The notes below the pieces were generated by a model. It searched no databases. It saw only the letters and a list, made by a program, of their open reading frames with translations, and was not told the origin of the DNA. A DNA stretch of 64,000 nucleotides from Polyangia bacterium (GTDB lineage Bacteria; Myxococcota_A; Polyangia; Palsa-1104; JAEUJZ01): the NCBI GenBank assembly GCA_046351615.1, contig JAXLYF010000011.1, positions 74,882 through 138,881 of the forward strand. Reading direction: 5' to 3'. Of this stretch, positions 3,635 through 49,588 are shown piece after piece. A program made the position numbers and the translations under genes. Positions within the stretch are counted from its first letter, which is position 1. The number at the start of each line of letters is the position of its first letter.

Positions 3635-6600
3635 ATGCGACGAAAGAATTCGAAGAACCAGGGACGGGCCGCTGTTGTGCTGCGCGCCAAGCTGCTTCCC
3701 TGGTTGCTGGTGCTTCCGGGGGCGTACCTTGCACCGCAGGCTGCTCTCGCCCAGCAGACGCTGGCCCAGATTCAGGGCACGGTAAAAGACGAAAACGGCA
3801 AGCCGCTGGCGGGCGTGACCGTCGTTGTGCAGAGCCCGGCTCTGCAAGGTGAGCAGGCCGAAATCACCGACAACAACGGTCGATACATCATCACCCAGCT
3901 TCCGTCGGGCGATGACTACAAGGTCAGCTTCTTTTTCGGTTCGGATGACAAGCCCCGCGTCGAGCGTCCCGGCATTCGTCTGAGCCTCGGCAAGACCATT
4001 ACGGTCAACGGTGAGATCAACCTCAGCTCGACCAAGCGAGAGGTGAAGGTCATTCGCGAGTCGGCTCCTGTCGTCGATACCGCGAGCACCTCGACCGGCG
4101 TGGAAGTGAACCAGGAAGTTCTTCGTGCGACGCCAGTTCGTGGTCGTACGTTCGAGTCGGTGCTGACGCTGGCTCCTGGTACGTCGGATGTGGCCGGTAA
4201 GACGGGCGCTGCCGGTGGCGACGTTGGTGTGCAGATCTCGGGCTCGACGGGCAGCGAGAACAACTACATCATCGACGGTCTCAACACCTCGGACCCGAAC
4301 AAGGGTCTGATTGGCACCGAGCTTTCGCAGTACTTCATTCAAGAAGTCAACGTCATCACCGGTGGTTACCAGGCCGAATACGGTCGCGCGACCGGTGGTG
4401 TCGTCAACATCGCGACGAAGACCGGCGGTAACGAGTTCAAGGGCTCGGTGTTCGGTTCGTTCCAGCCATTCCAGCTGGAGCCGCGTGGCGTTGCTCGTCT
4501 GGGCGAAGCGCTGATTACGCGCTCGCGGACGAACCTGCTCTACGACTTCGGCTTCGAGCTGGGTGGACCCATCGTCAAGGACAAGATCTGGTTCTACCTG
4601 GGCTTTGCGCCGACGTTTAAGGAGTTCTTGTACCAGCGCAATGCGCGCTCGCTGACGTTTAATTCAGCGACGGGAAGTGCCCTGATCGATGCGGACTTCC
4701 AGTGCCCGAGCTACCTGGCCAACTCGTCGCTGTGTGACGGGCCTCGTACGCTGGCACTGCGCACCGACGAAATCGCGTACGGTCAGGAAGCGGGCGGCAT
4801 TGAGCGGCTCTACAACGGCATCGCCAAGCTGCAGTTCAACCTGAACCCGGACCACAACATCCAGCTGACCTATATCGCTTCGCCGAAGATCACGGACGAC
4901 TATGCGGCCATCCGCGCGGTCGATCTGGGCTCGCAGCGGTTCAATCAGAAGGATCAAGTCCACGACGCGATCTTCCACTACATCGGCAAGCTGTTTGACC
5001 GGAAGCTCCAGCTCGACGTCCTGTACGGTTATCACTACCAGGCTTCGACGCAGACCCCAGAGCAGCCGAACCTGCCGAGCATCGCGTGGGCCGCAGCGCA
5101 GACCGATCCGTTTACGCTGGCTGACTTTGAAGATGTCGGTGCCTGCCGTCGCTCGATGCGAACCGATGCGATGGGCCGCATGGTCAACTTCAACCCATGC
5201 CCGCTCACCGCTTATACGCGCGGTTACGGTGGCTACTCGGACAGCCTGCTGCAGCGTCATCAGCTGATTGCTTCGGCGACGTACTTTCTGCACATGACCT
5301 CGGCGTGGAACCCGCTGCGCGGTATTCACGCACTCAAGGTCGGCTTCGAGTTCGAGTACCTCGACAGCTACAACAACCGCACCTACACCGGCTCTGACCT
5401 GGATCCGAACGATCCGGCGAGCGGTCACCGTGCGTACAGCCAGCAGCCCGACGGCTCCATCCAGATCACCCGCGAGTACGCTCGTCAGAACCTGGAAACC
5501 AAGGAAATCGAGCACCTCAACAACTTCGAGGGTCGCAGCTACACGCAGAACTTCTCTGCCTACCTGCGCGACTCGTGGTCGATTGGCTGGGCGCCGGGTC
5601 TGGTGCTCAACGCCGGTGTGCGCTGGGAAGGTCAGGAACTGTACGGCGCGGACGGCAAGCGCTACATCGACATCAAGGACAACTGGGCGCCGCGTATCGG
5701 TCTTGTCTACGACTTTACGCAGCTGACGTCGCGTCCTGGCCGTTCGAAGGTGTTCTTCAACTACGGTCGGTTCTACCAGTCGATTCCGCTCAACATCAAC
5801 GACCGCCAGCTGACCGCCGAGGGTATCTACTCGTCGGGCTTTGTGCCGGGCGCAAACTGCTCGCCTGTCACGCTACAGCCGGGTGGTCGTGCGGTTCCGG
5901 TTCCGTCGGCAGGCTGCCAGTTCCTGGCGGCAGACGGTGGTGTTGTGAACGGTGGTCGTGCGCCGCTCATCTCGCCGGTCATCCAGGGCCAGTACATCAA
6001 CGAGATCACGCTCGGTATGAACTACGACGTGGGTCTCGATATCGTCCTCGGCATCAGCTACATCCACCGCGACCTTGGCAACATCGTCGAGGATATGTCG
6101 CCGGACGGTGGCTCGACCTACCTGCTCGCGAACCCCGGCGTGCCGAGCGATCCGAACGTCGTCAAGCAGCTTCAGGACGAAGTGGAGCGACTCAAGCCAG
6201 CCGGTACCGCAGGCAATGCGAAGGTTGCGGATCAGCTTGCGTACCAGGATGCGGTCGCGCTGCTCTCTGCGTATAAGCTCGTCGGCGCGGTGTTCCCGAA
6301 GGCCCGCCGCAACTACGACGCCCTGGTGCTGACGCTCAACAAGCGTCTGTCGAACCGCTTCTCGATCATCTCGAGCTACACCTACTCGCGTACCCTCGGT
6401 AACTACCCGGGAACCTTCTCTGCGTCGAACGGCCAGAGCGATCCGAACATCTCGTCGCAGTTTGACTTGATCGACCTGCTCGCGAACCGCAACGGACCGC
6501 TTCCCACCGACCGTCCGCACAACTTCAAGGCGACGGCGTTCTATGACCAGCCGCTCTTTGGCGACAAAGGCAAGCTGACCATCGGTCTGACCTTCACCGC

Positions 6601-20148: not shown

Positions 20149-21222
20149 TTGGTGTCAAAGCGTCCGCCGCTCCTTGGCTATAACCATAACGTCCGTCACG
20201 CTGGACGGCTGTTTCACGTCCAGACTGAGGACTCGGGACCGGCTCGTCCGGTTCTTTCCACGCACCTCTTCATCGAGGGGACCATCCTTTCGTCCCAGCG
20301 GACGACCTATCCGCTCGACGAGCCGGAGACGGTCACTCAGAAGCGGATGCAAGAGCAGCACAAAGACATGCTCAAGCGTCTGCGCAATGGGCAGTTCGAT
20401 CTCTTGCCGATTGTGCAGCGCTATCCCGTGACCAAGCCGGGAGAGCATGGCGCGCCCACTGCCAGCGCAGGTGCAGGGGACACCCAAAAGACGGCGGTGC
20501 CTCCGGCTGGGCAGGAGCCATCGCCCAAGGACACCGGATCTTCGCCCATCTTGTCCCCGGTTCCACCGCCACCGGCTGGGCCGACCGCTGGGACGGGGAC
20601 GCTGGCCGAGCGCCTGCGCAAGCTGAGCGGAGCGGCTGCTGCCTCGGCTGGTGCGCCTTCTCGGCCTCCGGTTCCCGATAGCAAGGTCGTGATCGCACCG
20701 GAGCTGCTGTCGGGTGGCGATGACGCCGTGGTGGAAATCGAAGCAGCTGCCGATGATGACGAGCCGGCAGTGACCTTCGAGGCCGAGGCCGATGACGAGG
20801 ATATGCTGAGCCAGAACACGCCGCTGCCCAAGGCACGGCCCATGGCGCAGCTCGATGAAGACAACACCGCGCAGTTTGGTGCCAGCCAGATGCCGGTGGT
20901 GAACCTGCCGCCGTCGCTGTCTCGCTCGATGGCGCCGCCTTCAGTGCTGCCATCGCCGCCGCAGCGCTCGATCCCGACCTATACGATTCCACCGGAGCTG
21001 TTTAAGCCACGGCCCACGGCGGAAGGTGTGACGCTCAAGCGCTCTCCACCTGTGCCGATTTCGCGCGCACCAAGTGATCCGATTCGGACGACGATTGTAC
21101 GGGCCCGCCCGACCCGACCTGCGCCGCTGGCGCCTTCGCTGCGGCCCGGTCAGACCTTGCCGCCGGACAGCCCGCTGGACGCTGAGCTGCTGGCCTATCT
21201 GGCGCGCGGCTCGAGTCGCTAA
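20149..21222 (+). CDS. Conserved hypothetical protein with a globular N-terminus (LGYNHNVRHAGRLFHVQTEDSG) and a long Pro/Ala-rich tail
   Basis: The start is a TTG or GTG (20149/20152). The N-terminal 90 aa look globular and the remainder is disordered P/A/S-rich sequence. Confidence 0.45.
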   Translation: MVSKRPPLLGYNHNVRHAGRLFHVQTEDSGPARPVLSTHLFIEGTILSSQRTTYPLDEPETVTQKRMQEQHKDMLKRLRNGQFDLLPIVQRYPVTKPGEHGAPTASAGAGDTQKTAVPPAGQEPSPKDTGSSPILSPVPPPPAGPTAGTGTLAERLRKLSGAAAASAGAPSRPPVPDSKVVIAPELLSGGDDAVVEIEAAADDDEPAVTFEAEADDEDMLSQNTPLPKARPMAQLDEDNTAQFGASQMPVVNLPPSLSRSMAPPSVLPSPPQRSIPTYTIPPELFKPRPTAEGVTLKRSPPVPISRAPSDPIRTTIVRARPTRPAPLAPSLRPGQTLPPDSPLDAELLAYLARGSSR

Positions 21223-21259
21223 GTCGCCGGTCCGTTCCCTTTCTCCTCGCCTGATCCTT

Positions 21260-21502
21260 CCACTGTGGAAAGCGAAAGACCCTTGCGAAAGTGGGCAGCG
21301 AGCCGTGAGCGAAGGGGGAAGACCCTTGCGAAAGTGGATAGCGAGCCGTGAGCGAAGGGTGAAGACCCTTGCGAAAGTGGGCAGCGAGCCGTGAGCGAAG
21401 GGTGAAGACCCTTGCGCAAGTGGATAGCGAGCAGTGAGCGGAGGGTGAAGACCCTTGCGCAAGTGGATAGCGAGCAGTGGGAGAAGGGTGAAGACCCTGT
21501 CT
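21260..21502. repeat. 43-bp tandem direct repeat array, about 5.5 copies, between convergent genes
   Basis: Unit GAAGACCCTTGCGAAAGTGGGCAGCGAGCCGTGAGCGAAGGGT. Copies start at about 21275, 21318, 21361, 21404 and 21447, with a partial copy at 21490. Copies differ by a few point substitutions (GGGCAGCGAGCC vs GGATAGCGAGCA). Each unit junction forms AAGGGT-GAAG-ACCCTT, a 6-bp-arm inverted repeat. Confidence 0.85.
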
Positions 21503-21525
21503 GGGTGACTGCGCGGGTCGCTGGG

Positions 21526-24500
21526 TTACTCAAACAGGGGAATGTGGGCGGCTTGGCTCTGGTGAACAAGCTGCTCGGCGCGCTCCACCAGGTCCGCGAC
21601 GCCCTGCTCGGTCAGCCCCAGCAGCAGCCACGGGCCACCTGACTCGCTGGCTGGGGCCAGGTAGCGCCCCGGTCCCAGCACTGTCAGTCCTGGCTGGGTG
21701 CCGAGTGGCTTGCGGGCAAAGCGGGCCAGGCTGGGATCGGTGTGCGGGGCTGGCACGGCGCGACCAGAGCGCAGGTCAACTGCCGCCACCAGGTACAGCT
21801 CCTGCGGGAGCGTCGCACGCGGTAGCAGCGCCAGTTGCCGCAGGGTCTGGGCCGACAGCGCGGGCACTGGTGGGCTGTGCGGATACAGCTTGGCCAGCGG
21901 CTGCCAGTCTGGATCGGCATCGTCGGAATAGTAGGGCAGGCCATCGAGCGACCGTCCGTTGTCGATGCTGTAGATCCGAGTCGGCGTGAGCGGCTGCCAC
22001 AGGAAGTTGTCTGCGTAGTTGGCATCGCCATGGTGGATAAGGACCAAGAAGGTCCACAGGTCCGCGATGGCGTGGCGATAGCCACGGTCGATGCGGAAGC
22101 GCTCGGGGTTCCACAGCTCACCGTGGAAGCGAAGCGGCATCACGGCGTCATCAATCCAGTCGGTCAGCGCACCGAGCACCAGGTGATCATTGATCTCGGG
22201 GAAGGTCGCGGCGGTGTCCGACCCCATGATCTTGGGGACTGTTCGGCAGGCGCGATCGCAGGGCACGTTGCGATGAAAGGCGCGGACCACCACTTCCGGT
22301 ACGAGCTGACGCTCGGGCGCATCGGGGAAGAGGAAGCGGTCGATGCGACGGGCGGCCAGCTCACAGCGCGGCGCGTTGTTGCCTTCGATGCCGTCTTGCT
22401 GCTCGCTGGCCTGTGGCCCGAGCGGCTTCCACTTGGCGGTGAGCGAGCACCCAGGTCCGCTGTATTCCCCGCGACAGTCGGTCCGTGAAAGCGTAAGCCG
22501 ATAGACCGTCGGATTCACCTGTGCCACCGCGGTCAGCGTGAGATCCTGGGACAGCAGCTCGTCTTCGGTGGGCGATCGGCGCGGCGAAGGGGGCGACAGC
22601 CGGGAAAGGTACAGCTCACCCGCTGGAAGCTTCTGGGCCAACGGGGACTCTGCTTCAGTGGACAGGACATAGACCGGACGGTCCTGGGCAATCGCTTGCT
22701 CGATGTCCTGCACGCTGCGGGTCGGGGTGTAAAAGCGCAGGCTCAAGGTGGTCAGGTGTTCGGTCTGGCGTAGGTTCGCTGGGGTCTGGCCCAGGTACTT
22801 TTGCACCTGCGGTGTGCGCTGGGTATAGAGCTGGAAGTACGACACGAGCAGGCGGTCATCGACCAGGATCTCGGCGGCGGGCGGAAGCCATAGATCGAGC
22901 CACGTCACCAGGTCTTTGAGCGGCAGGGTGGGACGCGCAGGCAGCGCCAGATAGGCGGCGACGCGATCGGCCTTGTGGGCGGCGGCGTGCTGGCTGTGAC
23001 CCAGCCCCACGCCGAGCAGTGCGACCAGCGCCGTGGCCACAGCCTTTCGCAGCCAGAGCCAGCGCGCATCGGACACAAGGCCGAGCGAGCCGAGCAGCAC
23101 AAGGCACAGCGAAGCGGGGGCCCAAGACTCTGGGTTGGTAGGCTCAAAGAAGAAGAAGTGTCCGAGCAGCAGCAGGGGCCACGCCGCAAGCCGCGCAGTC
23201 ACAGCCGGTGCGGCGCGCAGGGCGTGGCGGCCCAGCCACAGCGCTCCGAGTCCGCCCAGGCCAGCTTCCCACGGCAGCAGGGGGGCCGGACGTTCACCGA
23301 ACAGCCAGGTGCTAAGTCCGCGATAGCAGTCGAGCAGGCGCTGCGGCACGCTCTGCGGTACGGACAGAAACTCACCGGACAGGTGATATTCCAGGTAGAA
23401 GCGCAGCAGGTCGGGGCCACTGCGGACTCCACCTGGACCGATGCCGAGCCACACAAGAAACGGTCCCAGCAGCGCGGCGGCGGTCAGCACGATGCGGAGC
23501 TGCGCACCGAGCAGATCCTTTTGGGGCCGATGCAGCAGCAGATCCACCAGCAACCAGACAAAGAGCAGCCCGCTGAGCAGGTGGATGGCCGTCGCAAGGG
23601 CCAGGAGCCCGCCGAGGATCGACTGCTGCTGCCTGGCTGAGAGACGGTCAAAGCCTGGCAGACCCAGGTCGAGCAGCCCGCGATGGTGAAGGTACAGCAG
23701 CAAAAACAGGCTGCTTGCCAGCTGCATGGACTCCTTTTCCTGTCCGCACAGGACCAGCTGCCAGCGTCCACGGGCGAGCAGGTAGAGCAGGCAGGCCAGG
23801 GTCGCTGTGAGCGCCTTGTGGCAAGGCTGCGGCTGGAGCGCGCGGGCCGCCAGGTAGAGGAGCGCCATGTTTCCGCCCAGGCTGAACGACTCACGAACCA
23901 GCACCGCCACGAGCGGATCATCGGTGAAGAGGAGAAACGGTGCGGTGAGCGGGATGATGAGCGGATGTGCAAAGAACAGCCAGTCGCCCAGGGCTGCTGC
24001 CCGGCCTTGGTGCAGCACGTTGGCGGTCATCAGCGCATCCCACTGCGGGTCCGCACCGAAGCGAAACAAGAGCTGCGCGGCGGTCGCAAGCATCCCGATG
24101 GAAAGCGCGGGCAAGAGCGGGGAGCGGCGTGGACCCAGGCTGCGCGCAATCACCTGGCTGAGCAGCGTCACTGGGAGCAGCAGGGGCGCGGCGAGGAGCA
24201 GCAGTCCGCTGGCGGTCAGGATGCCGAGCACAAAGCCGTTGTTTTCGTGGAAGAACAGGGCGGCGGGGTCGGGGGCGTGCTGACCTCGGCGGGCCAAAAA
24301 GAGTCCGCCATAGCCACCCGCAGCGAGAGCGGTCGCCATCACCAGCAGGTGCGTCCGGTGTGAAAACGCGGCGTACTCTGTCGCCAGCGCGGAGATACCC
24401 AGCAAGATCGGCGCGAGCACCGCGAGCGTGCGCTCGGGCCGGTCGTGGTCGGTGGTCGGATGGGAACCTTGGGCGTGCTGGGTCCACTTCGCGCCAAACA

Positions 24501-24663
24501 ATCCGCCGAGCAGCCAGCACAGGACGACGACAAACCAGGCGGTGGTGCTGGCAGACAGGCCACGCATTGCCACAAAGCCAAGCGTCACCTGGATGCAGGC
24601 GAGGGCAAAGCCGGTCACAAACGGCTCGCCGAGGCGCTGGGCTAGGGAAGGGCGCGGTGGCAT
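21526..24663 (-). CDS. Large polytopic membrane protein (about 13+ TM N-terminal half) with about 450-aa soluble C-terminal domain; function unknown
   Basis: 1045 aa. Hydrophobic helices run through the first 600 aa. The start is 10 bp after the stop of the upstream speE-like gene. Confidence 0.55.
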   Translation of the reverse strand: MPPRPSLAQRLGEPFVTGFALACIQVTLGFVAMRGLSASTTAWFVVVLCWLLGGLFGAKWTQHAQGSHPTTDHDRPERTLAVLAPILLGISALATEYAAFSHRTHLLVMATALAAGGYGGLFLARRGQHAPDPAALFFHENNGFVLGILTASGLLLLAAPLLLPVTLLSQVIARSLGPRRSPLLPALSIGMLATAAQLLFRFGADPQWDALMTANVLHQGRAAALGDWLFFAHPLIIPLTAPFLLFTDDPLVAVLVRESFSLGGNMALLYLAARALQPQPCHKALTATLACLLYLLARGRWQLVLCGQEKESMQLASSLFLLLYLHHRGLLDLGLPGFDRLSARQQQSILGGLLALATAIHLLSGLLFVWLLVDLLLHRPQKDLLGAQLRIVLTAAALLGPFLVWLGIGPGGVRSGPDLLRFYLEYHLSGEFLSVPQSVPQRLLDCYRGLSTWLFGERPAPLLPWEAGLGGLGALWLGRHALRAAPAVTARLAAWPLLLLGHFFFFEPTNPESWAPASLCLVLLGSLGLVSDARWLWLRKAVATALVALLGVGLGHSQHAAAHKADRVAAYLALPARPTLPLKDLVTWLDLWLPPAAEILVDDRLLVSYFQLYTQRTPQVQKYLGQTPANLRQTEHLTTLSLRFYTPTRSVQDIEQAIAQDRPVYVLSTEAESPLAQKLPAGELYLSRLSPPSPRRSPTEDELLSQDLTLTAVAQVNPTVYRLTLSRTDCRGEYSGPGCSLTAKWKPLGPQASEQQDGIEGNNAPRCELAARRIDRFLFPDAPERQLVPEVVVRAFHRNVPCDRACRTVPKIMGSDTAATFPEINDHLVLGALTDWIDDAVMPLRFHGELWNPERFRIDRGYRHAIADLWTFLVLIHHGDANYADNFLWQPLTPTRIYSIDNGRSLDGLPYYSDDADPDWQPLAKLYPHSPPVPALSAQTLRQLALLPRATLPQELYLVAAVDLRSGRAVPAPHTDPSLARFARKPLGTQPGLTVLGPGRYLAPASESGGPWLLLGLTEQGVADLVERAEQLVHQSQAAHIPLFE

Positions 24664-24672
24664 GTCCTGGGG

Positions 24673-26250
24673 CTACTCGCGAGCGTAGGCGTGACGCGCC
24701 AGCAAAAGGACGCCGAGCAGGTCGCGGTCAGACAGCGGACGTACCGCGTGGATGAGGCGTCGGACCTGGGCATCGGCAAAGAGCAGGACTGCACCCTGCG
24801 GGTCACGCGCTGTGACCGCTTGCTCGACCTGCGTGGGGGAAAAGGGCAGCTTGCGGGCGGCGTAAAGGACCGGCAGACCGACGGCGCTGCTGTCCACCAC
24901 CAGGATGTCGGCAAAGACTTGGGCGGCGGACTGGGCGATTCGCTGGGCGAGCGGCTCAGACAGCGCTTCACACAGGCTGAGCGACACCACGCCACCTGGG
25001 GTGAGGTGCTCGGCGACCTGACGATAGAACGTCGGGGTGTGCAGCAGCGCGGTGGCAATCCGATACGGTGCAGGGACATCGAGCACGATGAGGTCGAAGC
25101 GCTCGGTGCTGTGGGCCAGCGCATGTCGCGCATCATCCAGGGTCAGCGTGATGTCGTGGGGCGACAGGCGATGGACGCTGGCGAAGTGAGCAAAGCCCAG
25201 CGAGGCGACGCGGGCATCCAGCTCGATCACCTGGACGCGATAGCCCAGGCGGTGCAAGCGGGCCGCCGAAGAGAAGCTGCCACTGCCGACCACCAGCGCG
25301 TGGCCGCGTGTCGGTCGCATCGCTCCGGGGACTTCGGCCAGCAGGACGGAAAAGGCATCGAGCGAGCCCGAGCGATAGAACGGCACGCCATCGAGAAACA
25401 AGGCCGTCTCTGCGTCATCCCGAACGACATCAATGCGCTGATGGGGGGAGTAGTCGCTGGCGAGAAGCTGCGGAGACTTGATCCCATGGACGTGCCGGAA
25501 ATAGGCAGCTGTGACGTGCTGGTCGAGGTGTGAGCCAAGGCCGATGAGCGTCGCCGACCCGAGCAGTGTTCCCAGCGCCACCTTCCGACCGTAGCGAAGC
25601 AGGGCCATGACGACCGGCACAAGTAGATAGCCTGCGCGCAGCAGCTGGTAGGACGGCCCCAGCGCGATGCCGACCAGGAAGATCAGGGCTCCGGCCAGCT
25701 CTGCGGCATACAAGCGGGGCAGCGAGTCGGTCTTGGCGTACAGCGGCAGCAGCACCGCGCAGTATCCGCACGGGATCGTGATGAGCACGGTGGCCAGGAT
25801 GAGGGCCCAAGCTGGATGGGCTGTGCTGAGTGCAGCGCTGAGGGCTCGGATGCTCCAGGGGAGGGTTGCGTGCGCAAGGAACGCGACGGCGGCCCACAGG
25901 TGTTCGATGCTGCCACCAAGCGTTAGGCGGCTACCGAGCGCGTAGCCCAGGCTGGGACCCAGCAGCGTGATGAGCGTGGCGAGCAGCAGCGACAGCTCAG
26001 TGACAAAGAACGTCGAGCCCAGCTCTCGCGAGGCGACGTACTGACAGGCGAACAGGGCTGCACCACCGCTGGCCAGCACGGCGGACGCTAGGAACCCGCG
26101 TGGGAGAGACAGGGGAAGACGCAAAGCCGACGGCACAGCAGCTCTGCAGCGTAGCACAGGCGCTGCGCCTGGCTTGCTCGAAACTGTGCAGCTAGCGGGG
26201 CTGTCCGTAGAACGTGCCGCGACCGTTGGTGCCGATGTAGACGCGACCAA
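24673..26250 (-). CDS. Membrane-bound spermidine-synthase-like (aminopropyltransferase-fold) protein
   Basis: An N-terminal multi-TM region is followed by HQRIDVVRDD...LFLDGVPFYRSG...ALVVGSGSFS...DLIVLDVPAPY, resembling the SpeE core. The glycine-rich motif is VVGSGSFS rather than the canonical GGGDGG. The true start is probably downstream of 26250, because it overlaps the next gene. Confidence 0.6.
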   Translation of the reverse strand: MVASTSAPTVAARSTDSPASCTVSSKPGAAPVLRCRAAVPSALRLPLSLPRGFLASAVLASGGAALFACQYVASRELGSTFFVTELSLLLATLITLLGPSLGYALGSRLTLGGSIEHLWAAVAFLAHATLPWSIRALSAALSTAHPAWALILATVLITIPCGYCAVLLPLYAKTDSLPRLYAAELAGALIFLVGIALGPSYQLLRAGYLLVPVVMALLRYGRKVALGTLLGSATLIGLGSHLDQHVTAAYFRHVHGIKSPQLLASDYSPHQRIDVVRDDAETALFLDGVPFYRSGSLDAFSVLLAEVPGAMRPTRGHALVVGSGSFSSAARLHRLGYRVQVIELDARVASLGFAHFASVHRLSPHDITLTLDDARHALAHSTERFDLIVLDVPAPYRIATALLHTPTFYRQVAEHLTPGGVVSLSLCEALSEPLAQRIAQSAAQVFADILVVDSSAVGLPVLYAARKLPFSPTQVEQAVTARDPQGAVLLFADAQVRRLIHAVRPLSDRDLLGVLLLARHAYARE

Positions 26251-47349: not shown

Positions 47350-47824
47350 GTATCCTCCCTGCTGGACCCTCAGGAGCGCGCTGTCCGCGACGCAGCTTCT
47401 GCGGGCCCAAGTGTGCTTCATTCATCAACAAAATGAAGAAATGCGATGAATGCTCTGCTGCTGCAATGGCAACTCTGATAGTGAAAGATGGTAGCGACAA
47501 ATCATGATATGTAAATCGGAAATATTTTTAATATGAAAATCGAATGCTTGACTTGTCTGTGTATGGGAAGGTGCCGAAAGGAGCTGGAAATTTTGAGTTC
47601 AGACGGAAAAATTCACGATGTCGGGCACTTGATGACAGCGTGATGTCCTTTGTGTTGATTTGTCTTTGCTTTTTATGTGAATGGATATTGAGCCTGAACT
47701 GTTTCGCTGTGAATGATTGATTTGATTGCGCAATTTTGAGGTTGTTGTTCAAAGCTCAAATAGATCATGTGGTTAGACCAAGACCGATGCTTCGTGTATC
47801 ATCCCTGCGCACAGGACTCCTTTC

Positions 47825-48838
47825 GTGTCGCAGACTTCGACTCCTTCCCACGCTTCTTCCTCGCTTCGCAAAGACTCCGATTCATCGGCTTCTCCTCCCT
47901 CTGATTCCGTCGCAGATCGTGGCACTTCTTCTGCGCGTGAATCGACACCGCCGGGTCGTGACTCTCAGGTTCGGCGTGATCTGCGCAGCTTGCGACTGTC
48001 GGCGATCTTGTATGTGGTGATGTTTGTTGCAAAGCTCGGGGTGTACTTTGCGACGTCGGTGATGGCGCTGCTCGCGGAAGCGATGCACACGCTGAGCGAT
48101 GTGATTGTGGTGGGATTTTTGCTGCTGGGACTGCGCTGGTCTGCCGATGAACCGGACGAAGAACACATGTTCGGACACGAGCGCGGACAGAGTGTGGCGG
48201 CCCTGGTTGCTGCGACGCTGTTTGTGTCCTTTACCAGCCTGCGTCTGTTTGAAGAATCGATTCCGCGTCTATTGGGAATCGGGCACTCCTTTTCGGCTCC
48301 ACAGCGGTTCGAGCTGGCGATCGGGGTGCTGCTGTTTTCGATGCTGATTGCCGCGATTCCGCTGTTCCAGATGCTGATTCACAAGCCAAGCGGAGCGGCT
48401 GCCAAGGCGCAGTTTCTGGAGCTTCTGAACGATGAGCTGTCGCTGATCGCGGCGCTGATCGGAACGGTGCTCACGCACTTGGGTTATCCGCTGGCGGATC
48501 CGGCTGCGACTGCGATTGTCGCGACGGTGATTGCGTGGAACGGAGTCGCTCTGTTTCGTGAAAACTTCGATCTAATTGTCGGTCGATCGCCGGGGCAGAA
48601 AGTGCTGACAGAGATCGCGCAGGTTGCGCTGTCGGTGGATGGCGTGCTGGATGCACACGATGTGCGGGCCGAGCGCTACGGGCACGGAATGATTCGCTGT
48701 GAGCTGCATATCACCGTCGTGCGTGGGACTCCGATTGAGGAAGCGCATCGCATCGATCAGGAAGTCCGCAGACGCATCATCCAGATCGAAGGAATGCGCA
48801 TGTGTCATGTTCACATCGATGCTTCGAAGAGCACGTAG
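47825..48838 (+). CDS. Cation diffusion facilitator (CDF) family metal transporter
   Basis: Six-TM core with HTLSD...D motifs and a C-terminal cytoplasmic domain (HDVRAERYGHGMIRCELHI). GTG start; the N-terminus is Ser-rich and disordered. Confidence 0.75.
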   Translation: MSQTSTPSHASSSLRKDSDSSASPPSDSVADRGTSSARESTPPGRDSQVRRDLRSLRLSAILYVVMFVAKLGVYFATSVMALLAEAMHTLSDVIVVGFLLLGLRWSADEPDEEHMFGHERGQSVAALVAATLFVSFTSLRLFEESIPRLLGIGHSFSAPQRFELAIGVLLFSMLIAAIPLFQMLIHKPSGAAAKAQFLELLNDELSLIAALIGTVLTHLGYPLADPAATAIVATVIAWNGVALFRENFDLIVGRSPGQKVLTEIAQVALSVDGVLDAHDVRAERYGHGMIRCELHITVVRGTPIEEAHRIDQEVRRRIIQIEGMRMCHVHIDASKST

Positions 48839-48890
48839 CGCAGTAGGAATCGCAGTGGGAATCGCAGTAGGAATCGCAGTAGGAATCGCG
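48839..48890. repeat. 12-bp tandem repeat CGCAGTAGGAAT x4 filling the CDF-RR intergenic space
   Basis: Copies start at 48839, 48851 (G variant), 48863 and 48875. The last AGGAA lies 9 nt upstream of the response-regulator ATG and probably serves as its RBS. Confidence 0.85.
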
Positions 48891-48892
48891 TC

Positions 48893-49588
48893 ATGAAGAT
48901 TCTGATCGTTGAAGATGAGGAGAAGATGGCGCGGCTTCTGCGGCGCGGACTGCAAGAGGAAGGACACTCGGTCGATGTCTGTGAAACGGCGGATGCGGCG
49001 GCAGAGCAGGCGCTGCTGATTTCCTACGATGTGATCTTGCTCGACTGGATGCTGCCTGATCAAGACGGGGTGGCGCTCTTGCGATCGTGGCGACAGAAGG
49101 GACTGCGAACGCCGGTGCTGATGCTGACGGCGCGCGGAACGACCGGCGAAAAGGTGACGGGACTGCGAGCGGGGGCCGATGACTACATGGCCAAGCCGTT
49201 TGACTTCGATGAGCTGCTGGCGCGGATTGAAGCGCTTCATCGTCGCGGCGGCGCGCATGATCGGTCGGCGCAGCTTGGCAACCTGACGCTGGATGCCAGG
49301 CGGCGTGTGCTGCAAGGGCCCGACGGAGAAGCGCCGCTTACCGCGCGTGAGTTCGAGCTTCTGTCGGAGCTTTGCGGTCATCGTGGCGAAGTGCTGACGC
49401 GATCGAAGCTGCTGAGCTGCGTGTGGGGAACCGACTTCGAGGGCAGTCCCAACGTCGTCGACGTCTACATCGGTTATCTGCGTGCCAAGATCGAGCAGCT
49501 CCGAGGCGAAGGCGTGTCTCTTCAGACGGTGCGCGGCATCGGCTATCGCATGGTTGTTGATGCGCAGACGGAAGGATCGCGGCGATGA
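48893..49588 (+). CDS. OmpR-family response regulator
   Basis: MKILIVEDEEKMARLL...DVILLDWMLPDQDG receiver domain; winged-helix C-terminus (LTAREFELLSEL...VRGIGYRM). Confidence 0.85.
   Translation: MKILIVEDEEKMARLLRRGLQEEGHSVDVCETADAAAEQALLISYDVILLDWMLPDQDGVALLRSWRQKGLRTPVLMLTARGTTGEKVTGLRAGADDYMAKPFDFDELLARIEALHRRGGAHDRSAQLGNLTLDARRRVLQGPDGEAPLTAREFELLSELCGHRGEVLTRSKLLSCVWGTDFEGSPNVVDVYIGYLRAKIEQLRGEGVSLQTVRGIGYRMVVDAQTEGSRR

Follow-up and report, generated by a model that had tools for sequence, protein, structure and literature searches.

A lineage-specific 43-bp minisatellite between two convergent genes of Myxococcota and its candidate recognition-site core

Tandem repeats in the spacers between bacterial genes raise a recurrent question, namely whether they are elements with a function of their own or the products of repeat turnover. 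This question is raised by a 43-bp tandem array in a 64,000-nucleotide stretch of Polyangia DNA (the window), which occupies the spacer between two convergent genes. A preliminary description, prepared from the letters of the window, proposed three readings for this array: a stack of terminators serving both genes, an array of binding sites for a dyad-recognising protein, or a mobile element of the REP/MITE type. In the following, we consider the architecture of the array, its distribution and turnover in related genomes, and the constraint on the junctions between its units, before comparing it with known systems.

The array and its genomic setting

The array was located by Tandem Repeats Finder at window positions 21276-21498, with a period of 43, 5.2 copies, 92% matches, no indels and a score of 362, which makes it by far the top-scoring repeat in the window. 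The preliminary description had given positions 21260-21502 and about 5.5 copies; the 43-bp array is real, and only its left edge had been drawn slightly too generously. The description was also right in recognising three variant haplotypes, all of which are present among the five full units: GGGCAGCGAGCC in units 1 and 3, GGATAGCGAGCC in unit 2 and GGATAGCGAGCA in units 4 and 5. The unit it quoted is unit 3. When the two halves of the unit (20-21 nt each) were searched separately, each gave five matches with up to three mismatches, compared with 0.01 expected from shuffled sequence, and neither half matched anywhere else in the 64 kb. The array thus consists of head-to-tail units within the 10-100 bp range that is typical of minisatellites and variable-number tandem repeats (VNTRs).

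The convergent arrangement of the neighbouring genes is likewise as first described, with the plus-strand gene ending at 21222 and the minus-strand gene at 21526. The spacer between the two stop codons is 303 bp long and mostly occupied by the array. The locus is composed of the following features:

20149-21222, plus strand: gene for a regulatory protein with a RomY N-terminal domain, 357 aa as listed, start codon uncertain (NCBIfam NF053858, E 1.3e-27)
21223-21275, no strand: left spacer flank, non-repeat, holding the palindrome CTTCCAC-T-GTGGAAG at about 21256-21270
21276-21318, 21319-21361, 21362-21404, 21405-21447 and 21448-21490, no strand: the five full units (Tandem Repeats Finder and repeat-family register)
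21491-21498, no strand: sixth unit, first 8 nt only, AAGACCCT (Tandem Repeats Finder)
21499-21525, no strand: right spacer flank, non-repeat, weakly similar to the final 27 nt of the RomY-like gene
21526-24663, minus strand: convergent gene for a predicted membrane protein of 1045 aa, without family assignment

The product of the RomY-domain gene has no Pfam match. RomY itself is a co-GAP for the polarity GTPase MglA in Myxococcus xanthus (PMC9481161). The 1045-aa gene is located downstream of a spermidine-synthase-like gene (24673-26250).

Several further features of the window are worth recording in their own right. Three shorter intergenic arrays have the hexamer GGAATC (or GATTCC) and a period of 11-12 bp in common. 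The first, GGAATCGnnnn in 8.6 copies (45990-46084), is found between convergent ORFs; the second, GCAGTAGGAATC in 4.2 copies (48839-48889), stops 4 nt short of the ATG of the gene for an OmpR/PhoB-type response regulator (48893-49588), which follows a cation-efflux gene and precedes genes for a histidine kinase and RND efflux; the third, CTGCCTGATTC in 3.1 copies (39607-39640), lies upstream of an ORF for a WD40 protein. GGAATC occurs 77 times in the window, compared with 29 expected occurrences, and these arrays look like putative helically phased binding-site arrays for one regulator. A 977-aa ORF on the minus strand (30524-33457) contains the Major Vault Protein shoulder domain (PF11978, 8e-19) together with Vault_3 and Vault_4 and encodes a bacterial MVP-like protein. 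Finally, the G+C content drops from about 65% to 53-59% over approximately 12 kb (about 36000-48000), with the lowest value in the 46-48 kb bin, and most short tandem repeats of the window are located there. The genes in this stretch include a fatty-acid desaturase, a reductase, a sulfotransferase and the WD40 protein, and the stretch may be an acquired island.

Distribution and turnover of the array

Relatives of the locus were found through the 1045-aa protein and the RomY-like protein, whose homologues lie in the same gene neighbourhood in uncultured relatives. Beyond the species of the window, these loci comprise:

L005: 1045-aa protein 89%; array of 6.3 units of 43 bp, 97% alike
L006: 1045-aa protein 76%; about 6 units, 42-45 bp long, with indels and a mutual identity of only 51-91%
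L007: 1045-aa protein 73%; at least one recognisable unit, within which the contig terminates (9136-9213)
L008/L009 and L014: 1045-aa protein about 50%; 14-15 bp between the stop codons, array absent
L020: RomY-like protein 79%; spacer of 59 bp, unit not significant

A profile of the unit detected neither a unit nor a proto-unit at the loci of the array-less relatives. Judged from this distribution, the array is a gain in one small clade that appears to have been retained at its locus through species-level divergence. It would have been gained once, in the ancestor of this clade, within a formerly very short spacer between convergent genes. No neighbouring gene was gained or lost together with the array among the loci compared, and no candidate factor emerged from this comparison. 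The 59-bp spacer of L020 (4138-4196) contains GGGTCTTC, the complement of GAAGACCC in the junction core, as well as CTTGCGCAGGTG, which is reminiscent of CTTGCGCAAGTG in the unit. This spacer was considered as a single-copy 'proto-unit' and rejected, because the resemblance corresponds to a profile E of 30.

The species of the window is represented by four assemblies in total: the arrays of the window, L001 and L004 are fully read, while L002 and L003, counted together, are two contigs with the same terminal sequence that stop within the array. In L002, L003 and L004, where it was checked, the 1045-aa protein shows 98-100% identity, and over 5.9 kb of flanking sequence the window, L001 and L004 have 99.4-99.8% identity. 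Nevertheless, L001 contains 3.2 copies of the unit as against 5.2 in the window and in L004, in short-read metagenome assemblies that are prone to collapse or mis-order tandem repeats. The window and L004 have equal copy number, yet they carry different units in positions 1-4, and they differ at 11 of 223 array positions compared with 20 of 5900 flank positions (Fisher p 5e-9), i.e. about 15 times more in the array. With the same proviso about short-read assemblies, unit number therefore differs among strains of one species, and the hypervariable copy number anticipated in the preliminary description is borne out by 3.2 versus 5.2 copies and by two different five-unit arrays between near-identical flanks. 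The left flank shows 1-4 point differences in L001, L004 and L016 and is diverged in L005 and L006; its perfect palindrome is kept in the former three and absent from the latter two.

Contigs from Logan end inside the array in three cases from the species of the window (L002 at 5879-5974, L003 at 5153-5248 and L016 at 4072-4154), as would be expected of a k-mer assembler that encounters near-identical 43-bp units, and the Logan contig L007 of the 73% relative ends in the same way. Assemblies break systematically at this repeat, and the picture of the array that public assemblies provide is biased by it. As a separate observation, the 1045-aa gene is 98% identical between the window and L004 over its whole length and 94% identical at four-fold sites, despite the 99.4-99.8% identity near the array. 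This lower identity across the gene than in the array-side flanks suggests mosaic recombination between strains.

A different behaviour is seen in the species that is related at 76%, where the arrays of four samples (L006 and L017-L019) differ by one SNP. The array thus varies in the species whose units are alike and is stable in the one whose units have drifted apart, as expected of slippage or unequal exchange. After its gain, the array would have evolved by replication slippage or by unequal exchange among units. Where units are near-identical, as in the species of the window, their number and order shift faster than the flanks mutate; where they have drifted apart, the array is frozen.

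The assertion that the array is non-coding also withstood comparison with the relatives. The period is not a multiple of three, the orthologous array of L005 contains two to six stops per frame in all six frames, and gene callers called nothing within the orthologous arrays. The two minus-strand ORFs of 116 and 173 aa had been dismissed as artefacts, and the open frames of the window are indeed not conserved. The minus strand of the window is open across the array because it is a pyrimidine-rich strand without stop triplets.

An exact junction-spanning 23-mer, searched against one genome per GTDB species, gave one match, which is the same locus in a metagenome-assembled genome of an 'uncultured Myxococcales bacterium' (L001). 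A degenerate 24-mer, searched against JGI/ENA metagenome contigs, also gave one match, again the same locus (L004). Plasmid BLAST in distant mode yielded no match, and a profile HMM of the unit (nhmmer --max), run over the window and 22 fetched loci, recovered array units only. Among viral contigs, an 18-mer of the core had a single isolated match in an AT-rich phage gene, without an array, which was rejected as a chance match.

These searches bear directly on the proposal of a mobile element. REP/BIME elements often lie between convergent genes and contain small dyads, and the array resembles them in both respects. A dispersed mobile repeat of the REP/BIME, MITE or MIRU kind, amplified at this locus, could also have left the weak, direct-repeat-like similarity between the 3' end of the RomY-like gene and the right flank. 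The unit, however, is confined to one locus in the window, the 22 related loci and the genome, metagenome and plasmid scans; no second locus, and hence no family of many genomic copies, turned up in the sequence searched when the dispersal of the unit was checked as the preliminary description had advised. In addition, terminal inverted repeats are missing from the array, the scanned neighbours include neither a transposase nor a RAYT gene, and the flank similarity is not significant in the window and absent in L006. A mobile origin is thus largely refuted, and we regard it as very improbable.

The flank similarity itself deserves a brief description. The 27 nt that end the RomY-like gene (21194-21220) and the 27 nt after the array (21496-21522) are 70% alike in the window, and in L005 a 9-mer, GGCTCGCGG, is common to the 3' end of the gene and the flank behind the array. 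In shuffles, the similarity has a p of 0.06 in the window, 0.0085 in L005 and 0.96 in L006. As a weak lead, this likeness hints that the spacer was perhaps born of a duplication involving the 3' end of the gene.

Taken together, the array is very probably a single-locus, lineage-specific, variable and non-coding minisatellite. Its locus would help to tell strains of an uncultured Myxococcales lineage apart, and it presents a minisatellite that was apparently born in a 14-bp spacer and can be traced through three species, in which 'live' arrays, homogeneous and variable, can be compared with 'frozen' ones, diverged and stable.

Constraint at the unit junctions

According to the preliminary description, every junction between units creates the dyad AAGGGT-GAAG-ACCCTT, a hairpin or palindrome with 6-bp arms. 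Only two of the five junctions have this exact dyad, and imperfect versions are present at the other three (AAGGGGGAAGACCCTT, GAGGGTGAAGACCCTT and AAGGGTGAAGACCCTG). Common to the junctions is instead a 14-nt core, AGGGnnAAGACCCT, which is found at the following positions:

21313-21326, plus strand: core AGGGnnAAGACCCT at junction 1/2, which reads AGGGGGAAGACCCT and lacks the inner T-A pair
21356-21369, plus strand: core at junction 2/3 (AGGGTGAAGACCCT, inside the full dyad AAGGGTGAAGACCCTT)
21399-21412, plus strand: core at junction 3/4
21442-21455, plus strand: core at junction 4/5 (outer pair G.T)
21485-21498, plus strand: core at the last junction (outer pair A/G mismatch)

In the Logan contigs L002 and L003, the last junction reads CAGGGTGAAGACCCTG. 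Twelve of the 14 core positions never change among 18 distinct junction types from three species. Within the L006 array, all 12 of these core columns are invariant compared with 6 of the 33 remaining columns (p 6e-7), a value that is indicative only, because the core was defined after the data had been seen and few independent lineages (three species and a fragment) contribute to it. A GAGC block in the middle of the unit, about 18 nt downstream of the core, is likewise invariant. For the unit as a whole, a hand count of the consensus gave 77% identity to L005 and 65% to L006, while four-fold sites of the flanking gene are 79% and 60% identical, respectively. Since the divergence of the unit approximates that of four-fold sites, most of the unit is unconstrained, and constraint would be limited to the core and the GAGC block. 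Solitary cores are found nowhere else in the 64 kb or in the related loci; therefore, the core is not the site of a global regulator in the available sequence.

Two other explanations for the junction sequence were rejected. A sigma-54 promoter across the junction (GG-N10-GC) deviates by one from the expected spacing in the window as well as in L005, as judged by eye. A CRISPR array is incompatible with the homologous segments between the cores, in which the GAGC and TGG blocks are aligned, with a 14-nt part that is too short for a CRISPR repeat, and with scanned neighbours that include no cas genes.

The core could be maintained for the hairpin that it forms in RNA. At junction 2/3 of the window's species, this hairpin reaches -11.1 kcal/mol on the plus strand and -8.3 kcal/mol on the minus strand (z -4.3 and -3.5 against shuffles). 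It is weaker in L005 (-7.6 and -5.6 kcal/mol, z -2.3 and -1.4) and in L006 (-5.9 to -6.9 kcal/mol, z near 0). Over the 18 junction types, only a 4-bp helix of AGGG and CCCT always pairs, and this helix is itself invariant; the inner T-A pair is broken in 7 junction types and the outer pair in 10. Covariation in the 8-bp junction helix is not beyond chance (score 0.068 compared with 0.070 in shuffles), and the loop bases AAGA are invariant in all junction types. An invariant loop, a stem that shrinks to 4 bp and absent covariation are the signature of a constraint on sequence rather than on pairing. On this comparison, the hairpin with 6-bp arms is a local feature of one species; the dyad that is conserved has 4 bp per arm and an asymmetric, conserved centre and differs from the longer palindrome first described.

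Folding of the whole spacer gave z values of -1.85 and -2.55 for the two strands of the window and -1.1 and -1.0 for those of L005, relative to shuffles. The junction hairpin expected in the preliminary description is stable in the window's species, and the spacer-wide folds (z -1.0 to -2.6) are unconvincing. At the gathering score, Rfam produced no match anywhere in the window, and the matches to the spacer at E up to 10 were at chance level. The array exhibits neither compensatory pairs nor a match to a curated RNA family. A promoter and terminator scan returned 0 sites between 20900 and 21900 on both strands, and the junction hairpins are followed by GCG or CGC instead of the T/U run of an intrinsic terminator.

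These data also allow an RNA-level module at the 3' ends of the two genes to be assessed. In this scenario, the junction hairpins would stabilise or terminate the plus-strand transcript, while the minus-strand read-through RNA of the 1045-aa gene, being C-rich and G-poor, would offer Rho a rut-like loading tract, and transcriptional collision would be averted. The position of the array exactly between the two stop codons, the stable hairpin in the window's species and the near-absence of a spacer in array-less relatives are in line with such a role. So is the composition of the minus-strand RNA, which in each of the three species would contain about 38-42% C and only 19-25% G along a stretch exceeding 200 nt. 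The strand bias, however, may merely be the composition of the amplified unit, and a 14-bp spacer suffices in the relatives. Neither the missing T-run, the empty terminator scan, the weaker hairpins of L005 and L006 and the frequently broken outer pair, nor a loop whose invariance is not required by stem stability alone, would be expected of the module. We consider it improbable, and the proposed terminator stack is weak for the same reasons: its hairpin does form in the window's species, but it lacks a T-run and a scan match and its stem shrinks to 4 bp in the sister species.

More weight has to be given to a neutral minisatellite, in which a 43-bp segment was duplicated by slippage in an unselected spacer and the uniform core reflects an anchor of slippage or conversion. 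The divergence of the unit consensus tracks four-fold sites, relatives of the same gene order do without the array, which makes it dispensable, and folding remains near shuffled controls. Several more intergenic tandem arrays in the window indicate that this genome tolerates or generates such arrays. It is possible that conversion tracts, or slippage anchored at the microhomology of the junctions, keep the core uniform in the absence of a binding factor. Difficult to reconcile with neutrality is the L006 array, in which homogenisation has largely stopped, as evident from units that are 51-91% alike and contain indels, and yet the core columns stay invariant. Furthermore, the position, the 42-45 bp period and at least five units are kept across species at 60% four-fold identity. 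We rate a purely neutral origin as credible, although less likely than not.

The core is invariant, its loop included, without covariation, and it is on this ground that a recognition site is inferred. The array core would accordingly be a selected recognition-site array, which we propose as a candidate only and with somewhat less than even confidence. Each core would be a putative site for a sequence-specific factor, repeated every 42-45 bp (about four helical turns) where the two genes meet at their 3' ends; it could be read as DNA or as 3'-UTR RNA, and both modes are compatible with the data. Of the readings first proposed for this locus, the binding-site array is thus the favoured one, since 12 of the 14 core positions stay fixed while the unit drifts, even though the motif differs from the dyad with 6-bp arms. 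The full statement, which combines the minisatellite with this functional interpretation of its core, is close to evenly balanced and tips slightly towards doubt. A more specific version is doubtful: here, the array would be a selected cis-acting module acquired de novo in one Myxococcota clade, with five to six copies of AGGGnnAAGACCCT to which a putative protein binds, either on DNA, where it would insulate colliding transcription units or serve as a roadblock between them, or on RNA, in the 3' UTR common to both genes, and with a core that selection keeps while the rest drifts. If the core is indeed a binding site, the locus would exemplify a regulatory or insulating array made by tandem amplification between convergent genes; otherwise, it would represent ordinary repeat turnover.

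Comparison with known systems

REP/BIME elements of enterobacteria are extragenic, imperfect palindromes, sometimes clustered, which are present in hundreds of dispersed copies and in alternating orientation. The array shares with them its extragenic position between convergent genes and its imperfect palindromes. By this general description, it is set apart as a single head-to-tail array in one orientation. Intrinsic terminators, including bidirectional ones, are comparable in being located at the 3' ends of both genes and in the G+C-rich hairpin that is possible on both strands. In contrast to them, the array has no T/U tract, its hairpin strength is not conserved and shows no covariation, and five to six copies are present rather than one.

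A closer numerical parallel is provided by sopC of plasmid F, in which a 43-bp sequence is directly repeated 12 times and every copy contains an inverted repeat of 16 bp (PMC3177203). Here, too, direct repeats follow each other with a period of 43 bp and each unit contributes one inverted-repeat motif of about 16 bp, and the array could be imagined as a sopC-like centromere whose five 43-bp repeats, with a 16-bp imperfect inverted repeat per junction, are bound by a ParB-type protein. In contrast to sopC, the array is chromosomal, in an ordinary context, and its sequence is unrelated. Genes similar to sopA or sopB are missing nearby, and Pfam and NCBIfam assignments revealed no ParA or ParB gene in about 30 neighbours. 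The dyad is conserved over just 4 bp per arm around an asymmetric conserved centre, plasmid sequences exhibit no similarity, and relatives of the same synteny lack the array. A centromere function is hence hardly credible.

The closest kind is the bacterial minisatellite or VNTR, of which all three defining features that were tested, i.e. head-to-tail units of 10-100 bp, unit numbers that differ among strains of one species and a non-coding sequence, are found in the array. MIRUs form a family that is spread over about 40 loci (PMC3635867). Different from these, the unit described here occupies a single locus, which is orthologous across species, and a 14-nt core is kept in it. Like the MIRU-VNTR loci of Mycobacterium tuberculosis (PMC3635867), the array occupies a non-coding spacer with head-to-tail units that are each some tens of bp long, and copy number and unit order vary among close strains. 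As in minisatellites and VNTR loci in general, units within an array are more similar to each other than units from different species, which is the pattern of concerted evolution.
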